Shown here: one piece after another, positions 4,634-60,706 of the stretch | Layout: every line of letters begins with the position of its first letter | How positions within the stretch are numbered: the first letter of the stretch is position 1 | NCBI RefSeq assembly: GCF_044324785.1 | Contig: NZ_CP172127.1 | Strand: one strand, 5' to 3' | Source: Escherichia coli | Lineage (GTDB): Bacteria; Pseudomonadota; Gammaproteobacteria; Enterobacterales; Enterobacteriaceae | DNA length: 64,000 nucleotides | Notes under the pieces: model-generated | The model's database searches: none | The model's input: the letters and a program-made list of their open reading frames with translations, nothing else | Told to the model about the DNA's origin: nothing | Made by a program: the position numbers and the translations under genes

Positions 4634-5044
4634 ATGACCACCACTCCAGGCAAATTAGAGTACCCGTCGGACAAAGGACACATAGACGACGGTAAAAACT
4701 ATCTCGACGTCATTTTGTGGAATATGAACGTCGGGCCACGTGCGCGCACTCGCGCGGTTTTTGTGCCAAGACCTAAAGCAGGCAATTTTTCAACCCCTGC
4801 TAAGCCTGCCCGTCAGGCATCCGTAGCCGCAGCGCCAGCAGTGAAACGTAAGGGCAAAACGCACACCGGGATCGCGATTCGCAGAAATGGTGAGCGGCAA
4901 GTAAAACTCCACGAAACAGCGACAACCTGGTGTGCTTCACCGCATGAAACTTACGACAAGATAACCGGGCAGCGCATTGGTGCGCCTGGTCGCTGTCGCC
5001 TGCTGTTGAGTTCCATCACTCCGATAGCAAAGAAAGGGGCGTGA
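4634..5044 (+). CDS. Hypothetical phage protein (136 aa, basic)
   Basis: ORF preceded by the second copy of the conserved junction/RBS sequence. Confidence 0.5.
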   Translation: MTTTPGKLEYPSDKGHIDDGKNYLDVILWNMNVGPRARTRAVFVPRPKAGNFSTPAKPARQASVAAAPAVKRKGKTHTGIAIRRNGERQVKLHETATTWCASPHETYDKITGQRIGAPGRCRLLLSSITPIAKKGA

Positions 5045-5045
5045 T

Positions 5046-5282
5046 ATGGCCGGGCAATCAGATTACCTGCCGCCCGGCTTACCACACAACCGCGCCAAAT
5101 GGCCCCAGGAATACCAGCTTAAAGAGCACTACGACATGCGAGCGGCGACGCTGATCCGCCAACTCTTTGAGAAACGTATTCCGAGGGGAAGCGTGATTGA
5201 GCAAATCGGAATGACGCCGGATACGTACCGGGAATTTTTCAGAGAGCGTCTGAACTACTGGAGAGGGGTGATGGAGCAATGA
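5046..5282 (+). CDS. Hypothetical phage protein (78 aa)
   Basis: ORF packed 1 nt after the previous stop; its stop overlaps the next start. Confidence 0.5.
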   Translation: MAGQSDYLPPGLPHNRAKWPQEYQLKEHYDMRAATLIRQLFEKRIPRGSVIEQIGMTPDTYREFFRERLNYWRGVMEQ

Positions 5283-5590
5283 AATACAAACGGTGGGTGC
5301 GTGCGGAAGTCGTAATCATCAAACAATGTGCGGGCAGCATGACAGTTGAACGTATAGGGCAGCTTATTGGAAGAACCGGTGCAGCGGTACGCACAAAAGC
5401 GCGCGAGCTGAAAATCTGTATGTATCTGCGGGGTAATTATCACCAGTCAGCAAAATACTGCCAGGAGGATATCGAGCTGGCAAGGGAATTACATCAGTCG
5501 GGTATTAATCGCCAGGATATCGCAGAAAAACTCGAAATGCCGATCGGAGCGGTGAATCAGTTTGTTTATTTTGAGCGGAGGATTTCATGA
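5279..5590 (+). CDS. Putative DNA-binding protein with two HTH-like repeats (103 aa)
   Basis: Two helix-turn-helix-like segments (TVERIGQLIGRTGAAVRTKAREL and NRQDIAEKLEMPIGAVNQFVY). Translationally coupled on both sides. Confidence 0.5.
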   Translation: MKYKRWVRAEVVIIKQCAGSMTVERIGQLIGRTGAAVRTKARELKICMYLRGNYHQSAKYCQEDIELARELHQSGINRQDIAEKLEMPIGAVNQFVYFERRIS

Positions 5591-5811
5591 AAGAACTTTT
5601 TCTGGCATTTGTGCCCCGGTTTATTAATGACCAGATCGCACTGACTGATAATGGTGAACAATATGAAATTGCCTGCAGCATGGTGGATGTGAATCCGGGC
5701 GAACGGTATGACGCGATGTGTGACCTGAAAATATTCACCTGGCTGGGTTGGGCCATTCCGTGTGGAGAACCAACAAATATTCGCCCGTTTGAGGGCAGGG
5801 AGGCTGTATGA
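5587..5811 (+). CDS. Hypothetical phage protein (74 aa)
   Basis: ORF with ATGA overlaps at both ends. Confidence 0.45.
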   Translation: MKELFLAFVPRFINDQIALTDNGEQYEIACSMVDVNPGERYDAMCDLKIFTWLGWAIPCGEPTNIRPFEGREAV

Positions 5812-5924
5812 GTGAATTGAAAATACGTCGCAAGGCAATAGCACGCGTTAAAAATCCATTACCAGTGCCCGCCGAATGCCATTTTTGTGGTGGGAATGTA
5901 CGGATTGGTACGTATGTATGGTGA
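5808..5924 (+). pseudogene. 38-codon ORF with a single CxxC (possible truncated zinc-ribbon gene)
   Basis: ATGA-coupled start. MSELKIRRKAIARVKNPLPVPAECHFCGGNVRIGTYVW then a stop; only half of a Cys4 ribbon is present. Confidence 0.3.
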
Positions 5925-5998
5925 TTGCGGAGTGACGTAAAACGAATCGTTGTGGGTGTAATATCGTCAATATCATTGGTTTCCCGGAGGGAAAGGAC

Positions 5999-6220
5999 AT
6001 GTTTGGCGATAAACTGGAGTTACCACGGAACGGGCGGATAGTGCTCTATATTTCAGATTACAAAGTAACCAGGGCTGAGGTGTTGGAACCGGAAAAACAT
6101 CTGGTCACGTTACCGGACATTATTGAGTTGTATAAGCGGGTCGGATATGTGGACTTGCATCGCGATGATGTTCCCGTTGAGTGTATGGAATGTGAACACC
6201 GGAGGTTTGAAGTTGATTGA
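5999..6220 (+). CDS. Hypothetical phage protein (73 aa)
   Basis: ORF with GGAGGGAAAGG upstream of the ATG. Confidence 0.5.
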   Translation: MFGDKLELPRNGRIVLYISDYKVTRAEVLEPEKHLVTLPDIIELYKRVGYVDLHRDDVPVECMECEHRRFEVD

Positions 6221-6310
6221 ATTGACTTAGAAAAAGCCCGGGGCTATAGTTTCCGCGCAGCCGCAAAATCGGTTGCCGGGATTGGCGTCCCGGATATCTA
6301 AGTGACGCAT

Positions 6311-6331
6311 AGCCGCGTTAGCGGTTTTTTT
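6311..6331 (+). terminator. Weak intrinsic terminator-like hairpin with a T7 run
   Basis: agccgc-gtta-gcggtt followed by ttttttt. Confidence 0.35.
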
Positions 6332-6430
6332 ATGTGTTAGGCACGGCCACATTCGCATTATGGTGGGCTGTGTGGGGGCTTCTGCGGAAGCGCCGGGTTC
6401 ACTTAGCCGGTTACGCCAACCCTGCACAGT

Positions 6431-6463
6431 TCACCACCAGATGATTGGCGTCGCTGGTGGTGA
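6431..6463 (+). promoter_or_regulatory. 10-bp perfect stem-loop abutting the start codon of the Ant-like gene
   Basis: tcaccaccag (6431-6440) pairs with ctggtggtga (6454-6463), with a 13-nt loop. The right arm carries the only SD-like GGTGG and ends at ATG 6463. Confidence 0.5.
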
Positions 6464-7137
6464 TGAAAAAAACACTAAGTGAGGCCACTGCGATGACAAT
6501 CCAAATATCTGCGGAATCCCTTTCTCCGCTACATCATAACCAACTTCCCGTCATCACTACTGAATTGCTTGCCAGTTTGTATGGCACGGAAGTAAATGGT
6601 ATCCAGCAAAACTTCAAGCGCAACATCGCCAGATTTGTCGTAGGAAAGCATTTTTTTAAGCTGGAAGGTAATGAATTACGCGACTTCAAAAACAGACTGA
6701 CAGATAGTCAGTCAGTTGCTAAACATACCCGATCCCTCATTCTCTGGACAGAACGCGGCGCAGCTCGCCATGCCAAAATGCTGGAAACAGAACAGGCCTG
6801 GGAAGTTTTCGAAAAGCTGGAAGATTGTTATTTTAGCCAGCGTCCAGAGAGGCGGAGTACAACTACCGATGACCGTACTCCCTTACGTGATGCCGTTAAT
6901 ATGCTGGTCGGTAAGAAAGGCATGATGTATCCCGATGCCTACACCATGATTCATCAACGCTTCGCCGTCTCTCACATAGAACAACTGTCACAGACGCAAA
7001 TGTTAGAGGCGATTGAATACATCCACTGCCTGCTACTCGATGAAAATCAACCAACCATTCCAGATCACCACTATCAAAAATGGAAAAGTGACCAGAATGC
7101 GCCATGTTGCCAAAGGCGAACATCTGATGACCTTTGA
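6463..7137 (+). CDS. Antirepressor-like protein with N-terminal ORF6N domain
   Basis: LPVITTELLASLYGTEVNGIQQNFKRNIARFVVGKHFFKLEGNELRDFKN matches the ORF6N pattern. Start is uncertain (6445 TTG, 6463 or 6493 ATG). The last ~30 codons overlap another frame. Confidence 0.7.
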   Translation: MKKTLSEATAMTIQISAESLSPLHHNQLPVITTELLASLYGTEVNGIQQNFKRNIARFVVGKHFFKLEGNELRDFKNRLTDSQSVAKHTRSLILWTERGAARHAKMLETEQAWEVFEKLEDCYFSQRPERRSTTTDDRTPLRDAVNMLVGKKGMMYPDAYTMIHQRFAVSHIEQLSQTQMLEAIEYIHCLLLDENQPTIPDHHYQKWKSDQNAPCCQRRTSDDL

Positions 7138-7270
7138 CGCTTTCAAAGAGATCGCTGAGCGGGCAGGGTATCTGGTGATCCACAGCGACAATCTGCGAAG
7201 TATGACACTGGATAAATTGATGGTAATGGGGAAAAAGTCTGCTGTATCCGTTGCTGATTCAGCATTTTGA
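7040..7270 (+). CDS. 76-aa ORF overlapping the Ant-like gene by 98 nt in another frame (separate gene or frameshifted C-terminus)
   Basis: MKINQPFQITTIKNGKVTRMRHVAKGEHLMTFDAFKEIAERAGYLVIHSDNL... looks protein-like. The overlapped tail of 6463-7137 (QKWKSDQNAPCCQRRTSDDL) looks like out-of-frame read-through. Confidence 0.4.
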   Translation: MKINQPFQITTIKNGKVTRMRHVAKGEHLMTFDAFKEIAERAGYLVIHSDNLRSMTLDKLMVMGKKSAVSVADSAF

Positions 7271-7298
7271 CAGGTTGAATGTTTGGCGCGGTTATACT

Positions 7299-7385
7299 CT
7301 ATTTGCGCTTAAAAAGGTATTTAGTCACAACCAGCACGAGGCCGAATACTCTGTCAAAGTACCGCCCATGTAAAACTGTAACGTA
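7299..7385 (-). pseudogene. Decayed 3-prime remnant (~28 codons) of a second copy of the two-TM gene found at 10899-11504
   Basis: ~90% identical to 10899-10986 (same orientation, offset ~3600 bp). It has a 1-nt deletion that breaks the frame. Similarity stops at 7385. Confidence 0.75.
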
Positions 7386-7447
7386 TGTACTTGATGACTA
7401 AGCTGGCACCAGGTTAACACCAGGCGCCAGCTTGAAGGAAACTTCAG

Positions 7448-8371
7448 TTATTGGTTTCTGAGGAAAGCGATTCTTGAAAGGGTCATTTGCGTCTGGCAGT
7501 CGACCATTTTCTTGACTTCAGCATCTGTTCCCTGCATTGAAACTTTACCGCACATAGCATCCTTAGTTTTGATCCACTGACGCTGAGAAGGCAGCAAATC
7601 TTTTTTCTTCGCCGGGGTTAACTTGCTCCAGACGGTACTCAAATCAGAGTCGGCATTCGCAAATGCCATTCGGGACTGATCAAGGCTGTCAGCTTTTTGT
7701 GGCTGAAGTTGTGCCTGTCTCTCTATTTGCTTCTCCGCCTCATACTTAGCCTGTTCCTGCGCCCTGAGTTGCACCTGTTGTTCCGCTTCAATTTGGCTCT
7801 GTTGGGCATCCTTAGCCTGCTGGATTTTCTGCTGCTCAACGATCGGGTTGATAATAGAAAGTGATGTCAGTAAAGCGGCGCCCACTGATATCGGATTATC
7901 AGAAGAGGTTTTTACAAAAACGTTTTTCTGATCGTCGGTCGCCTGCACGGTGTAGGTGATACGTTTGGAAAAGGCGTTTGCGTTGTTCTCCAAAAACAGG
8001 CTTTCCATTTGCTTGTCGAGATTACGATTAAAATTCTTTCTGTAATCATCAGAAAGCTGGACGTATTCGTTCGCAGGTAGAGTCATCGTCACGGTCCCTT
8101 CACAAGTTTTCATTGTGCTGCCCGTGTCACTTGATGTTGTGGAGATTTCAGAGATGGCTAGTTTGATCTTGTCCAATGTGCTTCGTTTGGTCTGATTAGT
8201 GACATCAGGGTATTTATCGACCTGTTCAGAGAGTCCTTCATAAGCAGATTTTTTTAATAAATCCATAAGCGCTGACTGGGTTATTTCCGAAGAACAACCG
8301 ATCACATCTTTTTTGTTATCACAGCCTGTAAGGGCAATGGCGAGTAAGAGTACTGAGTATTTTAATCTCAT
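7448..8371 (-). CDS. Lipoprotein with Q-rich coiled-coil and C-terminal DUF1311/LprI-like domain
   Basis: Signal peptide plus lipobox LLLAIALTGC. Central EQQKIQQAKDAQQSQIEAEQQVQLRAQEQAKYEAEKQIERQAQ. C-terminal QRQWIKTKDAMCG...VDCQTQMTLSRIAFL resembles DUF1311. Opposite strand to the phage early genes. Confidence 0.75.
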   Translation of the reverse strand: MRLKYSVLLLAIALTGCDNKKDVIGCSSEITQSALMDLLKKSAYEGLSEQVDKYPDVTNQTKRSTLDKIKLAISEISTTSSDTGSTMKTCEGTVTMTLPANEYVQLSDDYRKNFNRNLDKQMESLFLENNANAFSKRITYTVQATDDQKNVFVKTSSDNPISVGAALLTSLSIINPIVEQQKIQQAKDAQQSQIEAEQQVQLRAQEQAKYEAEKQIERQAQLQPQKADSLDQSRMAFANADSDLSTVWSKLTPAKKKDLLPSQRQWIKTKDAMCGKVSMQGTDAEVKKMVDCQTQMTLSRIAFLRNQ

Positions 8372-8996
8372 GAATTCCCTTTAGAGTAAGGATTGGTTTT
8401 TAAGACGCGGTCTGTAATCAGTTCCGAGAGCTACAGTAAACAACGCTGAGCACTGAACGCATCACAGGCAAGGTAAAGGCGATATCGGCAAAGGCTGTGA
8501 AACCTTTAATTCAACAGATGGAAACGGTATGCGCAGGATCCTGTAACGACGCTCCCAAAACCGGAAACCTGTAAGGCATGTTTTCGCTGCTGAACTTAAT
8601 ATACGAACCTGCACTATCATGAACATATTTTATATCGTTATACCCCGAGTGATTGTGCCCGGCAATGGATAGTGTCCTGGAGGAACTATTTCTACTGTAA
8701 AAGGTAGACATTTAATTTCAGTGTGGAATTATTCCCTGCTGTTAATAACCATGGCTCTATATGGCACCGAGCGGACTAGTTAACTTGCCTGAAAGCCGCT
8801 ATGAGTGAGGAGCGAATATTGGCACGAGAGGATACCTGAACCATTTTTTGGACATGCGCTAAAAGCGAATGATTAGTTTTATCGGAATATTTACAGTATA
8901 CTTACAAGGCAAGCTTGGCGTGCCGTCTTGGGCGAGATTGCTTAAATTATTTTGTGGATATATCATTCAAACAAAAGATAATAAAATGAGGTTGTT

Positions 8997-9194
8997 ATGT
9001 CATATATTCGCGTAGAGAAAGATGGCCTTCAGTATGAAGCAGAATACTTCCGTAAAGAGGATATGGTCACAGTCTTTGGGGTTAGAGGAGGGCATTCCAG
9101 CGTGGTTCTAAATGGAATGACAGAAGTCGCGGCTGCTCGTACTGCGTTACGAAATCTTATTAGAGAAAATCAGGTTGATCCTCTAACTGATTAA
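8997..9194 (+). CDS. Hypothetical small protein (65 aa)
   Basis: ORF in AT-rich DNA with GAGG 7 nt upstream of the ATG. Confidence 0.45.
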   Translation: MSYIRVEKDGLQYEAEYFRKEDMVTVFGVRGGHSSVVLNGMTEVAAARTALRNLIRENQVDPLTD

Positions 9195-9398
9195 AAATAA
9201 GCCATCTTAACTGAGAGCATATTTTGATATAATTTAGATTAAATCTATTTTGAAGGTTAGTTTGGGATGAGAAGATTACATCAAAACCGTTATTACTAGC
9301 AATAAGTTGTGTAAATCAAATAATACATAATCATGTGGTAACATATACTAAGCGTAGTAAAGTTTTTATATATTCCTGTAACTTTGTGAGAAACTTCC

Positions 9399-10064
9399 AT
9401 GAAAGCCGACAACTTAAGAATTATAGAGAATGGCAAATATGTTTTCGATATGTTCTTGGATACTGGTGAATTTTACTATACAAGTCATGCCTTTGACACG
9501 AGAGAAGATGCAAAAAGCTGGATGGAAGAATGGCAGATTTGGGCAAATAATGTATCGAGTGGGAAAGTAAGTAGTATTTATTATATTTTACAAGTGCCTG
9601 ATACTTGGGCCGGTTCTTCAGATAAAAATAACCCTTACTCGGGACTTTATGTGAAAATAGGGCGTTCCAATAATGTGCTAAAAAGGTTGTCTAACCTGCA
9701 GACAGGTGCATTTGGTCAATTAATATTACACGCTTTGGAACCTGGTGGTTCAGAAAAAGAAAACTATCTTCATGAAAAATTTAGCAACGAAAGACGTCAA
9801 GGTGAATGGTTTGTTTGTACTAAGGAACTTACCAAGCATATATTTACAACATGGTTTAAAAACAAAATGCTCCCACCAGAACATCAAATAAAAATAATGC
9901 AGCTCGCAGAAAGAATAGGTATTTATTCGCATGTTCATACACTAATGGGGGGGAAGCCAGACTTAGTAAACCCATCTATTAGTGAACCTTGGGAATGCGA
10001 AAAATATGTTTTGGTTGATATGATTTATAGCTCTTTAGCAAAGCAAGTTAATCATAAAAAATAA
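9399..10064 (+). CDS. T5orf172 (GIY-YIG-superfamily) domain protein with YegP/DUF1508-like N-terminus
   Basis: Core YVKIGRSNNVLKRLSNLQTGAFGQLILHALEP...ENYLHEKFSNERRQGEWF fits the T5orf172 pattern (KIG.S.N...RL..LQTG...E..LH..F...R..GEWF). The N-terminal YVFDMFLDTGEFYYTSHAFDTREDAKSWMEEW resembles YegP repeats. Confidence 0.75.
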   Translation: MKADNLRIIENGKYVFDMFLDTGEFYYTSHAFDTREDAKSWMEEWQIWANNVSSGKVSSIYYILQVPDTWAGSSDKNNPYSGLYVKIGRSNNVLKRLSNLQTGAFGQLILHALEPGGSEKENYLHEKFSNERRQGEWFVCTKELTKHIFTTWFKNKMLPPEHQIKIMQLAERIGIYSHVHTLMGGKPDLVNPSISEPWECEKYVLVDMIYSSLAKQVNHKK

Positions 10065-10384
10065 AGTGTTACATTTTAACCATACAATTATTGATTCACT
10101 AATGAAGAGGTGATTTAAACGTATGAAGTTTTAATAAGCTCCAAGAATATTTTGTCATACATGGGTTAAAGAGTTATATAATAATATCTGCTTCTGGAAT
10201 ACAGCAGACAAGCACCTGCAGATAAAGGTCTGCTGAGAGCGAGAAGCGGATCATACGTTGGAAGTTGTTTAGGCAAATACGTTATAAACGTATTTGATTA
10301 AATTTACTTGGATCATAGTCTTCAATAACGCTTTATTATATTGTTTTTCATGCAGCAAACAGGTTTACAGGTAGGTAATAAGCT

Positions 10385-10789
10385 ATGAGTGGATGGAAAG
10401 AGTCTTTTACATTAGCAGAACAGATACAATTAGCATTAAATTTAGGTTATGAGGCTGTACCAGATGAAGAGGCATATACTGGGGCATACTTCATTAAAGG
10501 TGGTAAGAAGTGGATCTTTAACATCATCGGTCTCAAAAAGACATTGAATATATCTTCAGATGATGAACTAAGAGGGCAGGATTATGATGTTGATATGTAT
10601 TTCGAAATTCGCCAAAATTGGGCACAATACCAAGATATGATCTTTGGAAGCGAAGATATCACTCCTTCACCTAAAAATGAACTTACTTCAATTTACCATG
10701 ACCTGCAGGTAACGGATGAACCCAGGGAAATGGTGTATCTTTCTGATGGGATGTGGCTGGATCCCAACGGACGAATTGTACAACGATAG
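10385..10789 (+). CDS. Hypothetical acidic protein (134 aa)
   Basis: ORF with AGGTAGG upstream. D/E-rich. No recognisable motif. Confidence 0.5.
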   Translation: MSGWKESFTLAEQIQLALNLGYEAVPDEEAYTGAYFIKGGKKWIFNIIGLKKTLNISSDDELRGQDYDVDMYFEIRQNWAQYQDMIFGSEDITPSPKNELTSIYHDLQVTDEPREMVYLSDGMWLDPNGRIVQR

Positions 10790-10898
10790 CACTCGAACAC
10801 ACTCAGTAATCGTCTATAAGGCCAGCACTTGTTACTTGGTCATTTGGGGTTGCTGGTCTTCTCCATTAAATCGACTAAAGTCTGTTCCATAGAGAGAG

Positions 10899-11504
10899 TT
10901 ACTTGCGTTTAAAAAGGTATTTTGTCACGACCAGCACGAGGCCGAATACCTCTGTCAAAGTACCGCCCATGTACAACTGGAGCGTTAAGTCTTTAAATAC
11001 AAGCCATTCAGCACCAGTGGCAAAAAATACACCATTCATTATCAAAAGCTGGCAAGCAAGGATAATAAGGAACCATTTGCCATAGCGTTTTTTTAGATCG
11101 ATTTCAGCTTCAAAATCTTTGTTGTTGAGTTGTTTGCGCTCATGCTCAGTATCAAGTGAATTCACCTGTTTCACAGATGTGAACTCGGTCAAGATTTTAC
11201 TCTCAGTACGGGTGACTTGTTGAGAGGGGGTAGGAATTGGAATTCTTTTGATTGACGCAGCTACAGCCATTTTGCGAGCTTCGGCAGCTCTTTTTCTGGC
11301 TATTCCGTGAATACGGGCAGACGGTTTTTTTGGAGCATGCGAAACCTTTGTCTGAGGTGAAGTTTCGTCAGGAGACTGAACCGGAGTTTCATCCTCCTCC
11401 GGCTCAACCTCTTCTGCTAACTGACGGTGTAGGTTGAGGGAATCCTTCAGTCGGCGTGCAACTTCCTGTTTGAAACGGCTGTTAAAATCGTCATCCGATG
11501 GCAT
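10899..11504 (-). CDS. Orphan membrane protein: ~140-aa charged/Pro-rich N-terminal region plus two C-terminal TM helices
   Basis: Start is 9 nt after the ImmA-like stop. Hydrophobic segments WFLIILACQLLIMNGVFFATGA and LTEVFGLVLVVTKYLF. The N-terminal part is low-complexity with a K/R patch (KKPSARIHGIARKRAAEARK). Confidence 0.7.
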   Translation of the reverse strand: MPSDDDFNSRFKQEVARRLKDSLNLHRQLAEEVEPEEDETPVQSPDETSPQTKVSHAPKKPSARIHGIARKRAAEARKMAVAASIKRIPIPTPSQQVTRTESKILTEFTSVKQVNSLDTEHERKQLNNKDFEAEIDLKKRYGKWFLIILACQLLIMNGVFFATGAEWLVFKDLTLQLYMGGTLTEVFGLVLVVTKYLFKRK

Positions 11505-11513
11505 TCTAAAGCG

Positions 11514-12002
11514 TTACCCCAACCTCAAGTTCTTTAAACGATAAGTCATCGCATCGTCAGATACGCCAAAATGATGCGCCATTATATAACTTGGTTGGCC
11601 GTCAGCGTGCAGTTTTCTGACCTCATCTACCGGCATCAGAAGTTCTGCTGCGAACTTGTTCGCAAAAATTTCATCAGGATGCGTTCCGGCGCTTGCGGTT
11701 TCGCCACGTAAATCAACGTACTCATATTCATCGCTATGCGATGCTTGCCGGGCGATGTAATGCCCCAACTCATGCCCACATGAAAAACGTTGACGAACTT
11801 TGTTGTCATCACTGTTTAGAAAGATCGCTGGATCTTGATCTTTTTGTTTAATCAGTGCGCCAGAAACTTTCCCAGGAAGATCGGTAATAAAAACATCTAA
11901 TCCCATGTCGTGAGCAATTTTCGCTGGATCAACAGGGAAACCACGCCCGCACCAGAACGTGTCCAGCACTCGCCGGGCGTGCTCTCTTGGGTTGGTAGCC
12001 AT
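11514..12002 (-). CDS. ImmA/IrrE-family (M78, DUF955) zinc metallopeptidase
   Basis: HEXXH as SCGHELGHYI, plus the downstream family motif DEIFANKFAAELLMP. GGAGG 7 nt upstream of the ATG. Confidence 0.85.
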   Translation of the reverse strand: MATNPREHARRVLDTFWCGRGFPVDPAKIAHDMGLDVFITDLPGKVSGALIKQKDQDPAIFLNSDDNKVRQRFSCGHELGHYIARQASHSDEYEYVDLRGETASAGTHPDEIFANKFAAELLMPVDEVRKLHADGQPSYIMAHHFGVSDDAMTYRLKNLRLG

Positions 12003-12074
12003 AGCTCCTCCAGTTACTGCATTACGATTATTGGTCGAAATATAGACAACATGTTCCGTACCACATTCCTGTAA

Positions 12075-12093
12075 AAGTGCAAATTCTGCACTT
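12075..12093. promoter_or_regulatory. Perfect inverted repeat AAGTGCA-aattc-TGCACTT upstream of the ImmA-like operon
   Basis: 7-bp arms with a 5-bp spacer, ~75 bp upstream of the ImmA-like start. A related site lies at 12929-12947. Confidence 0.45.
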
Positions 12094-12435
12094 CTGGTAC
12101 GATATTAACTGTTAGTAGTAAAGTCTTCCAGATAAATCACTTTAAAATCGTGTGAATTGCTTGCTTTTTACGCTGCATTGTGGATGGCTCAATGTTTCCA
12201 GTAAAAACATACATGATAATCATGACATTAGTGGTTTTTTAGGCGTCCATCTGTTTCTTAAAAAAATGGATGCCACAAGCGCCCGGATGAGAACAGGAAG
12301 GGAAGGCTATTACATGTGTGATTTATTACATCTGTAAAAAAATACAGATCTAACCTGATCTTTTCATTGAAGTTTTTCTTGGTCCTGGATAGGATCTGGA
12401 GGTTGCGAAGATTTTAGAGTCGCATCAAAGGGAAA

Positions 12436-12461
12436 GCCCTGACAGCGCCAACTGTCAGGGC
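12436..12461 (-). terminator. 10-bp GC-rich hairpin, terminator-like on the minus strand
   Basis: gccctgacag-cgccaa-ctgtcagggc. On the minus strand it is followed by tttcccttt. Confidence 0.4.
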
Positions 12462-12537
12462 CATACAAAAACATCGGTTAATGCTTTCGTTGAGATCTCG
12501 GTTTGGGAGATTACCTCAACCGGGATCCCGTGTAAAG

Positions 12538-12572
12538 CATTCATTGCCGAAAATGATATAGGTCAATGAATG
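12538..12572 (+). promoter_or_regulatory. 9-bp inverted repeat whose right arm contains the start codon of the 92-aa gene
   Basis: cattcattg (12538-12546) and caatgaatg (12564-12572) with a 17-nt spacer. The ATG is at 12570. Confidence 0.4.
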
Positions 12573-12848
12573 AAACACATCTGTAAAAAGTCACATCGTC
12601 ACGACAGTATGTTTGATGTTCTTTCCGCAAATCAGGGGAACGTTGGGCGGCACAAATGTTGTGGATGTGCCTATGATAAAGGTATGTGGCACGCATTAAT
12701 TGGCGTTCCACGTGCGGTTGATGACTCTGTTTTAGGTGATTTGCCCGAAAGCCAGGCCGGGCATGTACGTCATAAAGATGCTTTTGAAGCATATAACATG
12801 GGATATGACCATGGGATGCATAAAAAAGCCTACGGCATGGCCTCATAA
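12570..12848 (+). CDS. Cys/His-rich small protein (92 aa), putative metal-binding
   Basis: ORF followed by a strong intrinsic terminator. Sequence contains GRHKCCGCAYDKG and many His. No family recognised. Confidence 0.6.
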   Translation: MKHICKKSHRHDSMFDVLSANQGNVGRHKCCGCAYDKGMWHALIGVPRAVDDSVLGDLPESQAGHVRHKDAFEAYNMGYDHGMHKKAYGMAS

Positions 12849-12868
12849 CCAGGTGTAACTTATTAACT

Positions 12869-51881: not shown

Positions 51882-52447
51882 TATGTATTCCCTTGTGATT
51901 ATAATCTTCATGAATATATCAATAAGTGCCGTTATCCAAAAAAAAGCACATTTGGATACTATTCTATGAAGTTCATTTTATTTTAAGGATTACATGTAAC
52001 AAATGTATTTAAAAGATTTCAAAATGTTTCTAATCTATTTAATATAATTCAGAATTATGAATTCTAGATATAAATATTCATGATAATTATGAATATATAT
52101 CAATATGTTATGAGTTGATTGGAAAGATAGGAAGTATCAATGATTGCGGCGCTAAACGGCTGATGTGATCACGCGCACATTAATGAAGGCATAAAAAAAA
52201 GCCGGCATCATGCCGGCCCAAAAAATATAAACAAGACGATAAAAGGCTAATAACGGGGTTATCATGACACAGAAATCAAAAAAGGTATAATTGAATTCGC
52301 TGCTAATATATTGTTTAGGTGAATTAATAAAACCATTACCATAGATAATAATAAATCTTCATTGCTGTTTTTCCGGTAATTATTGCCGTTGCGCAAAAAT
52401 TATCTATTTGTTCAAAAAATGATTGAGTCTTGACTGGCTCATCCAAT

Positions 52448-60618: not shown

Positions 60619-60706
60619 AACACATCAGATTTCCTGGTGTAACGAATTTTTTAAGTGCTTCTTGCTTAAGCAAGTTTCATCCCGACCCCCTCAGGGTCGG
60701 GATTTT
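60619..60706 (+). ncRNA. dsrA: DsrA small regulatory RNA
   Basis: AACACATCAGATTTCCTGGTGTAACGAATTTTTTAAGTGCTTCTTGCTTAAGCAAGTTTCATCCCGACCCCCTCAGGGTCGGGATTT matches DsrA, including its terminator hairpin. Confidence 0.95.

Follow-up and report, generated by a model that had tools for sequence, protein, structure and literature searches.

Genes and repeats at the locus

The 64,000-nucleotide (nt) stretch of Escherichia coli DNA analysed here (hereafter the window; contig NZ_CP172127.1 of assembly GCF_044324785.1) holds a lambdoid-type Escherichia prophage with an accessory-gene hotspot between its replication and antirepressor genes and its nin and Q genes, and our subject is a pair of direct repeats that brackets part of that hotspot. 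Read from the left, the order is a DnaB helicase gene, small open reading frames (ORFs), an isrK/C4 antisense RNA region, an ORF6N-domain, Ant-like gene, the left repeat copy, an LprI-family lipoprotein gene on the minus strand, an AT-rich block, a minus-strand gene for a protein with two transmembrane helices (the two-TM gene), which ends in the right repeat copy, and a minus-strand ImmA/IrrE (CapP-like) gene; a ninB-like DUF1367 gene follows, and then DUF1364, Q and lysis genes (Table 1). Of 5426 complete E. coli genomes, about 450-560 (about 8%) carry the prophage family, many of them isolates of sequence type 131 (ST131). When species-representative genomes were scanned with the two-TM protein, E. 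whittamii gave the only locus; this nearest representative, Sa2BVA5, has a 100% identical two-TM protein and DNA that is 97.5% identical rightwards of 7300.

Table 1. Features of the accessory region and blocks shared with related prophages, in window coordinates (aa, amino acids)
Feature	Position	Strand	Remarks
Block A	5000-8771		ORF6N gene, relic, LprI gene and 400 nt upstream of it; ST131 type 97%, E24377A type 91%
isrK, c4-a1b1 and C4 antisense RNA elements	6244-6441	+	Rfam gathering-score matches RF01394, RF03163, RF01695
ORF6N-domain (Ant-like) gene, disrupted	6493-7270	+	Pfam ORF6N, E = 8e-22 on the intact 22KM0354 homologue
Left repeat copy, a frameshifted relic of the final 28 two-TM codons	7300-7384	-	stop TAG at 7299-7301
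LprI moron-like unit	7385-8771	-	ends at the recurrent mosaic breakpoint 8771/8772; GC 0.445
LprI terminator hairpin	7402-7431	both (predicted)	30-nt span, 12 pairs, one interior mismatch
LprI-family lipoprotein gene	7448-8371	-	Pfam LprI, E = 4e-7; phrog_5094, E = 6e-186
Variable block, AT-rich cargo	8772-10876	+	GC 0.364; three ORFs
65-aa ORF	8997-9194	+	in the AT-rich cargo
GIY-YIG/T5orf172 protein, 221 aa	9399-10064	+	in the AT-rich cargo
134-aa ORF	10385-10789	+	in the AT-rich cargo
Block B	10877-12264		two-TM and ImmA genes with upstream region
Intact two-TM gene, 201 aa, phrog_5346	10899-11504	-	acidic/charged N-terminal half, two C-terminal hydrophobic helices
Right repeat copy, functional 3' end of the intact two-TM gene (second helix and stop)	10900-10985	-	repeat alignment and ORF
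ImmA/IrrE (Peptidase_M78, CapP-like) metalloprotease gene	11514-12002	-	Pfam E = 1.4e-17; PADLOC capP, E = 1.6e-25
Second variable patch	12265-12868
Block C	12869 onward

The two copies lie in the same orientation and agree at 78 of 86 aligned columns with one 1-nt gap, the ungapped pieces matching at 46/50 (7300-7349 against 10900-10949) and 33/36 positions (7349-7384 against 10950-10985) with spacings of 3600 and 3601. When the left region was compared with the 64-kb window by blastn, this was the one non-self match (86 columns, 7 mismatches, 1 gap; E = 6.3e-29), which confirms the ~90% repeat at an offset of ~3600 bp given in a preliminary description of this DNA; every other match in the window had E > 1, and no third copy was found. 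The right copy consists, also as first described, of the stop codon TAA (10899-10901) and the final 28 codons of the two-TM gene, ending in TLQLYMGGTLTEVFGLVLVVTKYLFKRK before the stop, and these codons encode the second of the two hydrophobic helices. In the left copy one C is missing after GAATA, which breaks the frame, and all similarity ends at 7384/7385; the TAG stop, the 1-nt deletion and the abrupt end had all been recognised before, but the deletion proved to belong to one haplotype, others being in frame. Left and right copies differ by about 7-13%, as much as different two-TM alleles do.

The left copy and its junction with the LprI unit

We found one and the same junction at 7384/7385 in the window, 22KM0354, SK1144, FCI23, E24377A, Sa2BVA5 and LCP30S3_I5 despite their differing neighbours. 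These seven loci span four different left or right contexts, and because the joint is the same in all carriers examined, the truncation most likely happened once. Similarity breaks off within codon ~173 of the two-TM frame, 17 nt then lead to the LprI terminator hairpin, and no motif or repeat was found at the joint.

The left copy is the relic of a once-intact two-TM gene, in agreement with its earlier description as a decayed gene tail, and in Sa2BVA5 the native 3' flank is still attached to it: relic and flank together give a 355-nt blastn match (96%) to the intact SK1144 two-TM tail plus downstream DNA. The flank of the Sa2BVA5 relic corresponds to what follows the intact two-TM genes of SK1144 and YZMc3-1 and includes a hairpin, AAGGCCCT-N6-AGGGCCTT; in LCP30S3_I5 about 110 nt of it aligns, hairpin included. 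Recombination within the two-TM gene, as had been proposed, is supported, and it truncated the gene. The further proposal that an older module stood directly after the Ant-like gene is unproven, since the relic has other left neighbours in Sa2BVA5 and LCP30S3_I5, where no Ant-like gene precedes it, and the genome GPEC172 is a recent deletion (see below). The sole hint of such an old adjacency comes from YZMc3-1, in which the ORF6N spacer is followed by the first 12-13 nt of the relic and then by unrelated cargo; past these 12-13 nt no diverged two-TM relic was found, either as an ORF or as tblastn similarity to 48 family members.

The relic is frameshifted in the window, E24377A and Sa2BVA5 and in frame in 22KM0354, SK1144 and the more diverged LCP30S3_I5, so that an ATG is in frame in two of three haplotypes. 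Between 7266 and 7465, the window differs from 22KM0354/SK1144 at 22 of 200 nt (about 11%), against 0-3 differences per 100 nt nearby, which makes the relic region the most diverged part of block A; it is identical in the window and E24377A. The small relic patch thus circulates as two haplotypes, one in frame and one frameshifted, and this is evidence against conserved coding.

Only 21 genomes were retrieved when the left copy (95 nt) served as megablast query, since no exact 28-nt word is common to both copies, and blastn mode was used instead. The repeat query then gave 431 genomes with two places and seven further records that match the left copy of the window exactly, including E24377A and SE11 (architecture was read for E24377A only), 438 in all. 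The LprI unit likewise occurs in 438 genomes, and by these counts of BLAST places relic and LprI unit appear always to co-occur; among the relatives, only YZMc3-1 and GPEC172 are without the unit.

Morons, as defined by Cumby et al. (2012, PMC3594210), are self-contained units of promoter, gene and terminator that phage genomes have gained, and the LprI unit looks like a classical moron by this definition because a hairpin terminator of its own is predicted and the 400 nt upstream of its gene (8372-8771) are conserved, with a weak sigma-70-like match nearby. The hairpin, 16 nt past the LprI stop, has no clear U-tract and was not listed by a simple terminator scan. Like morons, the unit is a single lipoprotein gene on the strand opposite to its neighbours, placed with its terminator between phage modules, and the AT-rich cargo beside it has the deviant GC content that morons show; unlike typical morons, the LprI unit itself lies only slightly under its flanks in GC, and its moron status is read from the sequence.

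A 32-nt type I-E spacer from a clustered regularly interspaced short palindromic repeats (CRISPR) array matches 8340-8371, over the LprI start codon, at 100%, and ATG precedes the match (locus L016). This short match recurs in about 120 of the complete E. coli genomes; the array of NZ_CP028578.2 was read, and ten matches taken as a sample carry CRISPR annotation, so that E. coli arrays hold old spacers against the accessory region of this prophage.

The bracketed DNA consists of two exchange units within a cargo hotspot

The preliminary description treated the bracketed 3.5 kb as one cassette, a view that the comparisons do not support: it comprises the LprI unit (438 of 5426 E. coli genomes) and an independently swapped AT-rich block (17 of them), whose breakpoints at 8771/8772 and 10876/10877 are separate from the repeat boundaries. 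The low GC content reported for the whole holds for the right 2.1 kb but not for the LprI unit, which is close to the flanks (0.44-0.48), and one of the three plus-strand ORFs called orphans encodes the GIY-YIG/T5orf172-family protein and is thus no orphan. All 17 E. coli carriers have the AT-rich cargo in the same context and share it at 99.2-99.5% identity, against about 93-98% for the flanks and about 93-97% for the neighbouring two-TM block; it is a separate exchange unit that probably arrived later than the joining of relic and LprI unit. The GIY-YIG protein covers just positions 99-333 of the 434-position profile phrog_8130 and may therefore represent a larger phage protein in shortened form. 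PADLOC found nothing convincing in the window's cargo apart from the match of ImmA to capP. In one carrier, Z0117EC0036, an IS1 insertion lies within the AT-rich block.

Blocks shared among relatives were defined by pairwise blastn (Table 1). The arrangement of the window recurs in a window type (e.g. 22KM0354), and the ST131 type (SK1144, FCI23) has the same frame around another cargo of 1.9 kb with a 232-aa gene. E24377A has ORF6N, relic and LprI genes and then HNH, PD-T4-3 and other genes, with no two-TM/ImmA pair within the 7 kb of downstream flank read. In YZMc3-1, the 12-13 nt of relic are followed by 5.4 kb of other cargo (a methyltransferase and an SMEK protein among it) and, on the right, by the native flank and intact two-TM/ImmA genes without LprI. 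E. whittamii Sa2BVA5 carries a PDC-M25A/B pair, native two-TM flank, relic, LprI, window-type cargo and two-TM/ImmA, and E. coli LCP30S3_I5, which is without ORF6N, has a 258-bp gene, native flank, relic, LprI and a cargo with a DUF262/NsnA-like gene. At least six alternative cargos thus occupy the interval between the replication genes and the ImmA/two-TM or nin genes of otherwise collinear prophages, and the earlier suggestion of a hot spot for cargo exchange held up in this comparison. By its gene content the site is a hotspot of accessory and defence cargo, the cargos of relatives being known or candidate defence systems: PD-T4-3 in E24377A (E = 6e-138; locus L003, 10537-11343), PDC-M25A/B in Sa2BVA5 (E = 9e-157 and 4e-96; locus L006, 10637-12579) and an NsnA-like DUF262 protein in LCP30S3_I5 (E = 5e-41; locus L018, 8354-9412).

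A natural deletion between the repeats

A chimeric query joining the ORF6N 3' end and spacer to the right copy and two-TM gene was contiguous in only one of the 5426 genomes, GPEC172. Its prophage is 99.94% identical to the ST131-type prophage of SK1144 on the left and 99.87% on the right, and its single repeat copy is left-type at all diagnostic sites up to GAGACC and right-type from CATGTAC on, the lone switch lying in a 29-nt identical core, CGAATACCTCTGTCAAAGTACCGCCCAT. This single left-to-right switch shows that GPEC172 arose by a 3,423-bp deletion of LprI and cargo through homologous crossover between the repeats, and the deletion yields a chimeric two-TM gene and protein. An ancestral 'empty site' in GPEC172 was considered and rejected, as the diagnostic sites show it to be a deletion derivative of an ST131-type prophage, and the sole apparent direct support for adjacency of the Ant-like gene and an old module is thereby removed. 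The deletion also shows that the repeats are recombinationally competent, though without demonstrated function.

Origin of the repeats

We consider it likely, with a probability of roughly 0.8, that the repeats are a recombination scar at a mosaic or moron joint rather than part of a mobile element or a feature with a function. The position of the left copy would once have been occupied by a complete ImmA/two-TM pair together with the 3' flank native to it, and a single illegitimate (non-homologous) crossover between two collinear, out-of-register phage genomes would have fused two-TM codon ~173 to a point 17 nt outside the LprI terminator hairpin of a partner whose LprI unit stood upstream of another ImmA/two-TM pair (in the order LprI, cargo, two-TM, ImmA). 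The product would have been the 28-codon relic of the old gene followed by LprI unit, cargo and intact two-TM/ImmA genes. Homologous or homeologous exchange within the relic and within blocks A, B and C, driven by RecA or by recombinases of the phages, would then have re-assorted both sides, the ORF6N/C4 antirepressor module would have been joined at the stop-codon end of the relic, and the block between LprI and two-TM genes would have been swapped repeatedly, the window's AT-rich GIY-YIG cargo being one probably recent variant. How these events followed one another, and that the founding crossover was illegitimate, are our inferences. Of the two parent types, the one with native flank and intact two-TM gene exists in SK1144 and YZMc3-1.

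Several points weigh against this account. An LprI unit without the relic beyond its terminator was not found in the E. coli genomes searched, so that the second parent is unobserved, and about ten loci were read by eye, the class counts coming from numbers of BLAST places. The divergence of the relic region shows additional patch exchange or conversion at that spot, which the proposed history does not explain. The order of events may also have been either of two: relics with native flank argue that ORF6N joined later, whereas the 12-13-nt mini-relic behind the ORF6N spacer in YZMc3-1 argues that the adjacency of ORF6N and two-TM tail is itself old, in which case the native flank may have been re-acquired by unequal crossover with a right copy.

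An origin within one lineage, a variant of this account, would dispense with a second allele: unequal crossover or slippage would have tandemly duplicated LprI, cargo and two-TM tail, and one copy would then have decayed or been replaced. The left copy of Sa2BVA5, which is right-type at its stop-proximal end and carries native flank, is what unequal crossover predicts, and the reciprocal product, a deletion, is seen in GPEC172. Such a duplication would still require the non-homologous founding junction at 7384/7385, the copies diverge at the level of alleles, which fits two diverged parents equally well, and no tandemly duplicated intermediate was seen among the genomes; we regard this origin as unlikely.

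We think it improbable, and more so than the lineage-internal origin, that the repeat is selectively kept, either as a built-in 'recombination handle' for losing, duplicating or swapping LprI and defence cargo at appreciable frequency or for an in-frame 23-aa micro-ORF, present in some haplotypes, that modulates the ImmA/two-TM pair. As a handle it would act by unequal crossover of left and right copies between co-resident or superinfecting relatives, with GPEC172 as a deletion product and the Sa2BVA5-type flank possibly as a reciprocal one. A function of the left copy as such, as an RNA element or terminator where the ORF6N and LprI genes converge, or as a 23-aa micro-ORF (MGGTLTEVFGLVLVVVKYLFKRK) that resembles the second helix and modulates the two-TM protein, is very doubtful. 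The persistence of the relic in about 438 genomes and the ATG-linked frame in two of three haplotypes (SK1144/22KM0354; LCP30S3_I5) would fit such a role, but its frame is broken in the window, E24377A and Sa2BVA5, no other stretch of block A is as diverged as the relic, YZMc3-1 lost it without replacement, and no Shine-Dalgarno sequence precedes the ATG as far as the bare sequence can be read. Nor does the relic have a stable hairpin of its own: the strong hairpin is the adjacent LprI terminator, which drives a fold z-score of just -1.7 to -2.5, and neither an Rfam match nor a terminator-like site was found inside the relic.

Direct repeats around lower-GC accessory DNA, a right copy that restores an intact gene as in 3'-end integration and one genome that precisely lacks the segment could together suggest a 3.6-kb mobile element inserted site-specifically into the two-TM 3' end, with the repeats as its attachment sites attL and attR. 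The copies, however, are separable (relic and LprI alone in E24377A; intact two-TM/ImmA without a full relic in YZMc3-1), and no gene for an integrase, transposase or recombinase turned up within 7385-10898 in the Pfam, PADLOC and PHROG scans, nor is one seen beside the segment; together these two observations exclude an attachment-type element. The repeats moreover differ by 8-13%, the variable DNA has boundaries other than theirs, and the only 'empty' site is the plain homologous crossover in the 29-nt core, so that we give this explanation almost no weight. No more credible is a free-standing homing endonuclease, the GIY-YIG protein, that cut the LprI-two-TM interval so that repair spread the cargo and made the duplication, for while a GIY-YIG/T5orf172 domain is present and the cargo is more uniform in its 17 carriers than the flanks, the repeats and the 7384/7385 junction exist in hundreds of genomes without this cargo, which therefore did not create them, no cognate target site was identified in cargo-less phages, and we know of no T5orf172/MUG113 protein that is an established homing nuclease.

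Relation to known systems

Lambdoid mosaicism by illegitimate and then homeologous recombination is an accepted account (Martinsohn et al., 2008, PMC2327257; De Paepe et al., 2014, PMC3945230), and the feature described here is an ordinary instance of this known process, with no new mechanism and nothing conceptually new for the theory of phage mosaicism. It resembles the mosaic joints of the Hendrix/Juhala model in that homology breaks abruptly inside a gene without a signal sequence, a truncated relic lies beside an intact paralogous allele and related prophages show re-assorted flanking blocks that are 90-99% identical. It differs from the usual joints in that the scar is an 85-nt direct repeat bracketing accessory genes, with a natural deletion derivative in GPEC172, and in that its donor parent was not found in the 5426 genomes. 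With the attL/attR sites of 3'-end-integrating elements it shares direct repeats of which one copy completes the target gene, whereas here the repeats are diverged, occur independently and lack both a recombinase and shared boundaries with the variable DNA.

Hotspots of anti-phage systems also occur in P2 and P4 prophages (Rousset et al., 2022, PMC9122126), and the likeness extends to a fixed position in collinear prophages that is filled by alternative cargos, PD-T4-3, PDC-M25A/B and an NsnA-like DUF262 protein among them. In contrast to those hotspots, the present one belongs to a lambdoid-type group and lies between replication/antirepressor and nin genes, and the window's own cargo (LprI, GIY-YIG, two orphans and ImmA/two-TM) is without validated defence function.

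The locus provides a clean, datable case of how a lambdoid accessory region is assembled, with a non-homologous joint, a relic, flanking homologous exchange and a relic-mediated deletion, and its modest value lies in a documented scar through which the bracketed genes have been lost naturally at least once. The locus further marks a defence/accessory hotspot of a prophage family that is very widespread in E. coli, draws attention to a portable ImmA(CapP-like)/two-TM pair and offers uncharacterised cargo for functional mining (the LprI lipoprotein, the GIY-YIG block and the CapP-like ImmA/two-TM pair).

The ImmA/two-TM pair

The ImmA gene is the upstream partner of the two-TM gene, and their pairing within block B is conserved. 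Homologues of the two-TM protein occur in Klebsiella, Enterobacter, Salmonella and Serratia, the C-terminal half being about 64-80% identical across genera and the N-terminal half variable, and in Klebsiella and other E. coli a 162-aa ImmA protein and the two-TM protein form a conserved two-gene module beside integrases at prophage ends. The best PADLOC match of ImmA is CapP, a regulator of the cyclic-oligonucleotide-based anti-phage signalling system (CBASS), yet here it is paired with a two-TM protein; no helix-turn-helix gene was seen adjoining the pair in the loci examined. The pair may be a damage- or infection-triggered membrane effector. Among 50,697 phage records, megablast with 6400-12200 and tblastn with the two-TM protein found essentially nothing of the cassette apart from one ImmA match at the end of a record, and the two-TM protein had no match.

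A type I-E spacer of E. coli 23CRST031 (NZ_AP045800.1) matches 10917-10948, in the two-TM tail and within the right repeat copy, at 100% over 32 nt (locus L017). This protospacer is preceded by the canonical protospacer-adjacent motif AAG, and the left relic differs from it at two positions.

The antirepressor region and chromosomal setting

Directly upstream of the ORF6N gene, Rfam placed isrK, the c4-a1b1 targets and a C4 antisense RNA, which together appear to form an antisense-controlled antirepressor module like P1 immI or Gifsy-1 IsrK-AnrP (compare PMC4825925). Alignment with four relatives revealed an 11-bp deletion after 7063 in the ORF6N gene of the window (ATTTTTCTTTT is kept in all four); it shifts the frame, and the antirepressor-like gene is therefore probably inactive in this prophage. 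The chromosomal small-RNA genes rseX and dsrA lie at 52194-52283 and 60619-60705, near the right end of the window, so that the prophage sits close to the dsrA region in the Escherichia chromosome.

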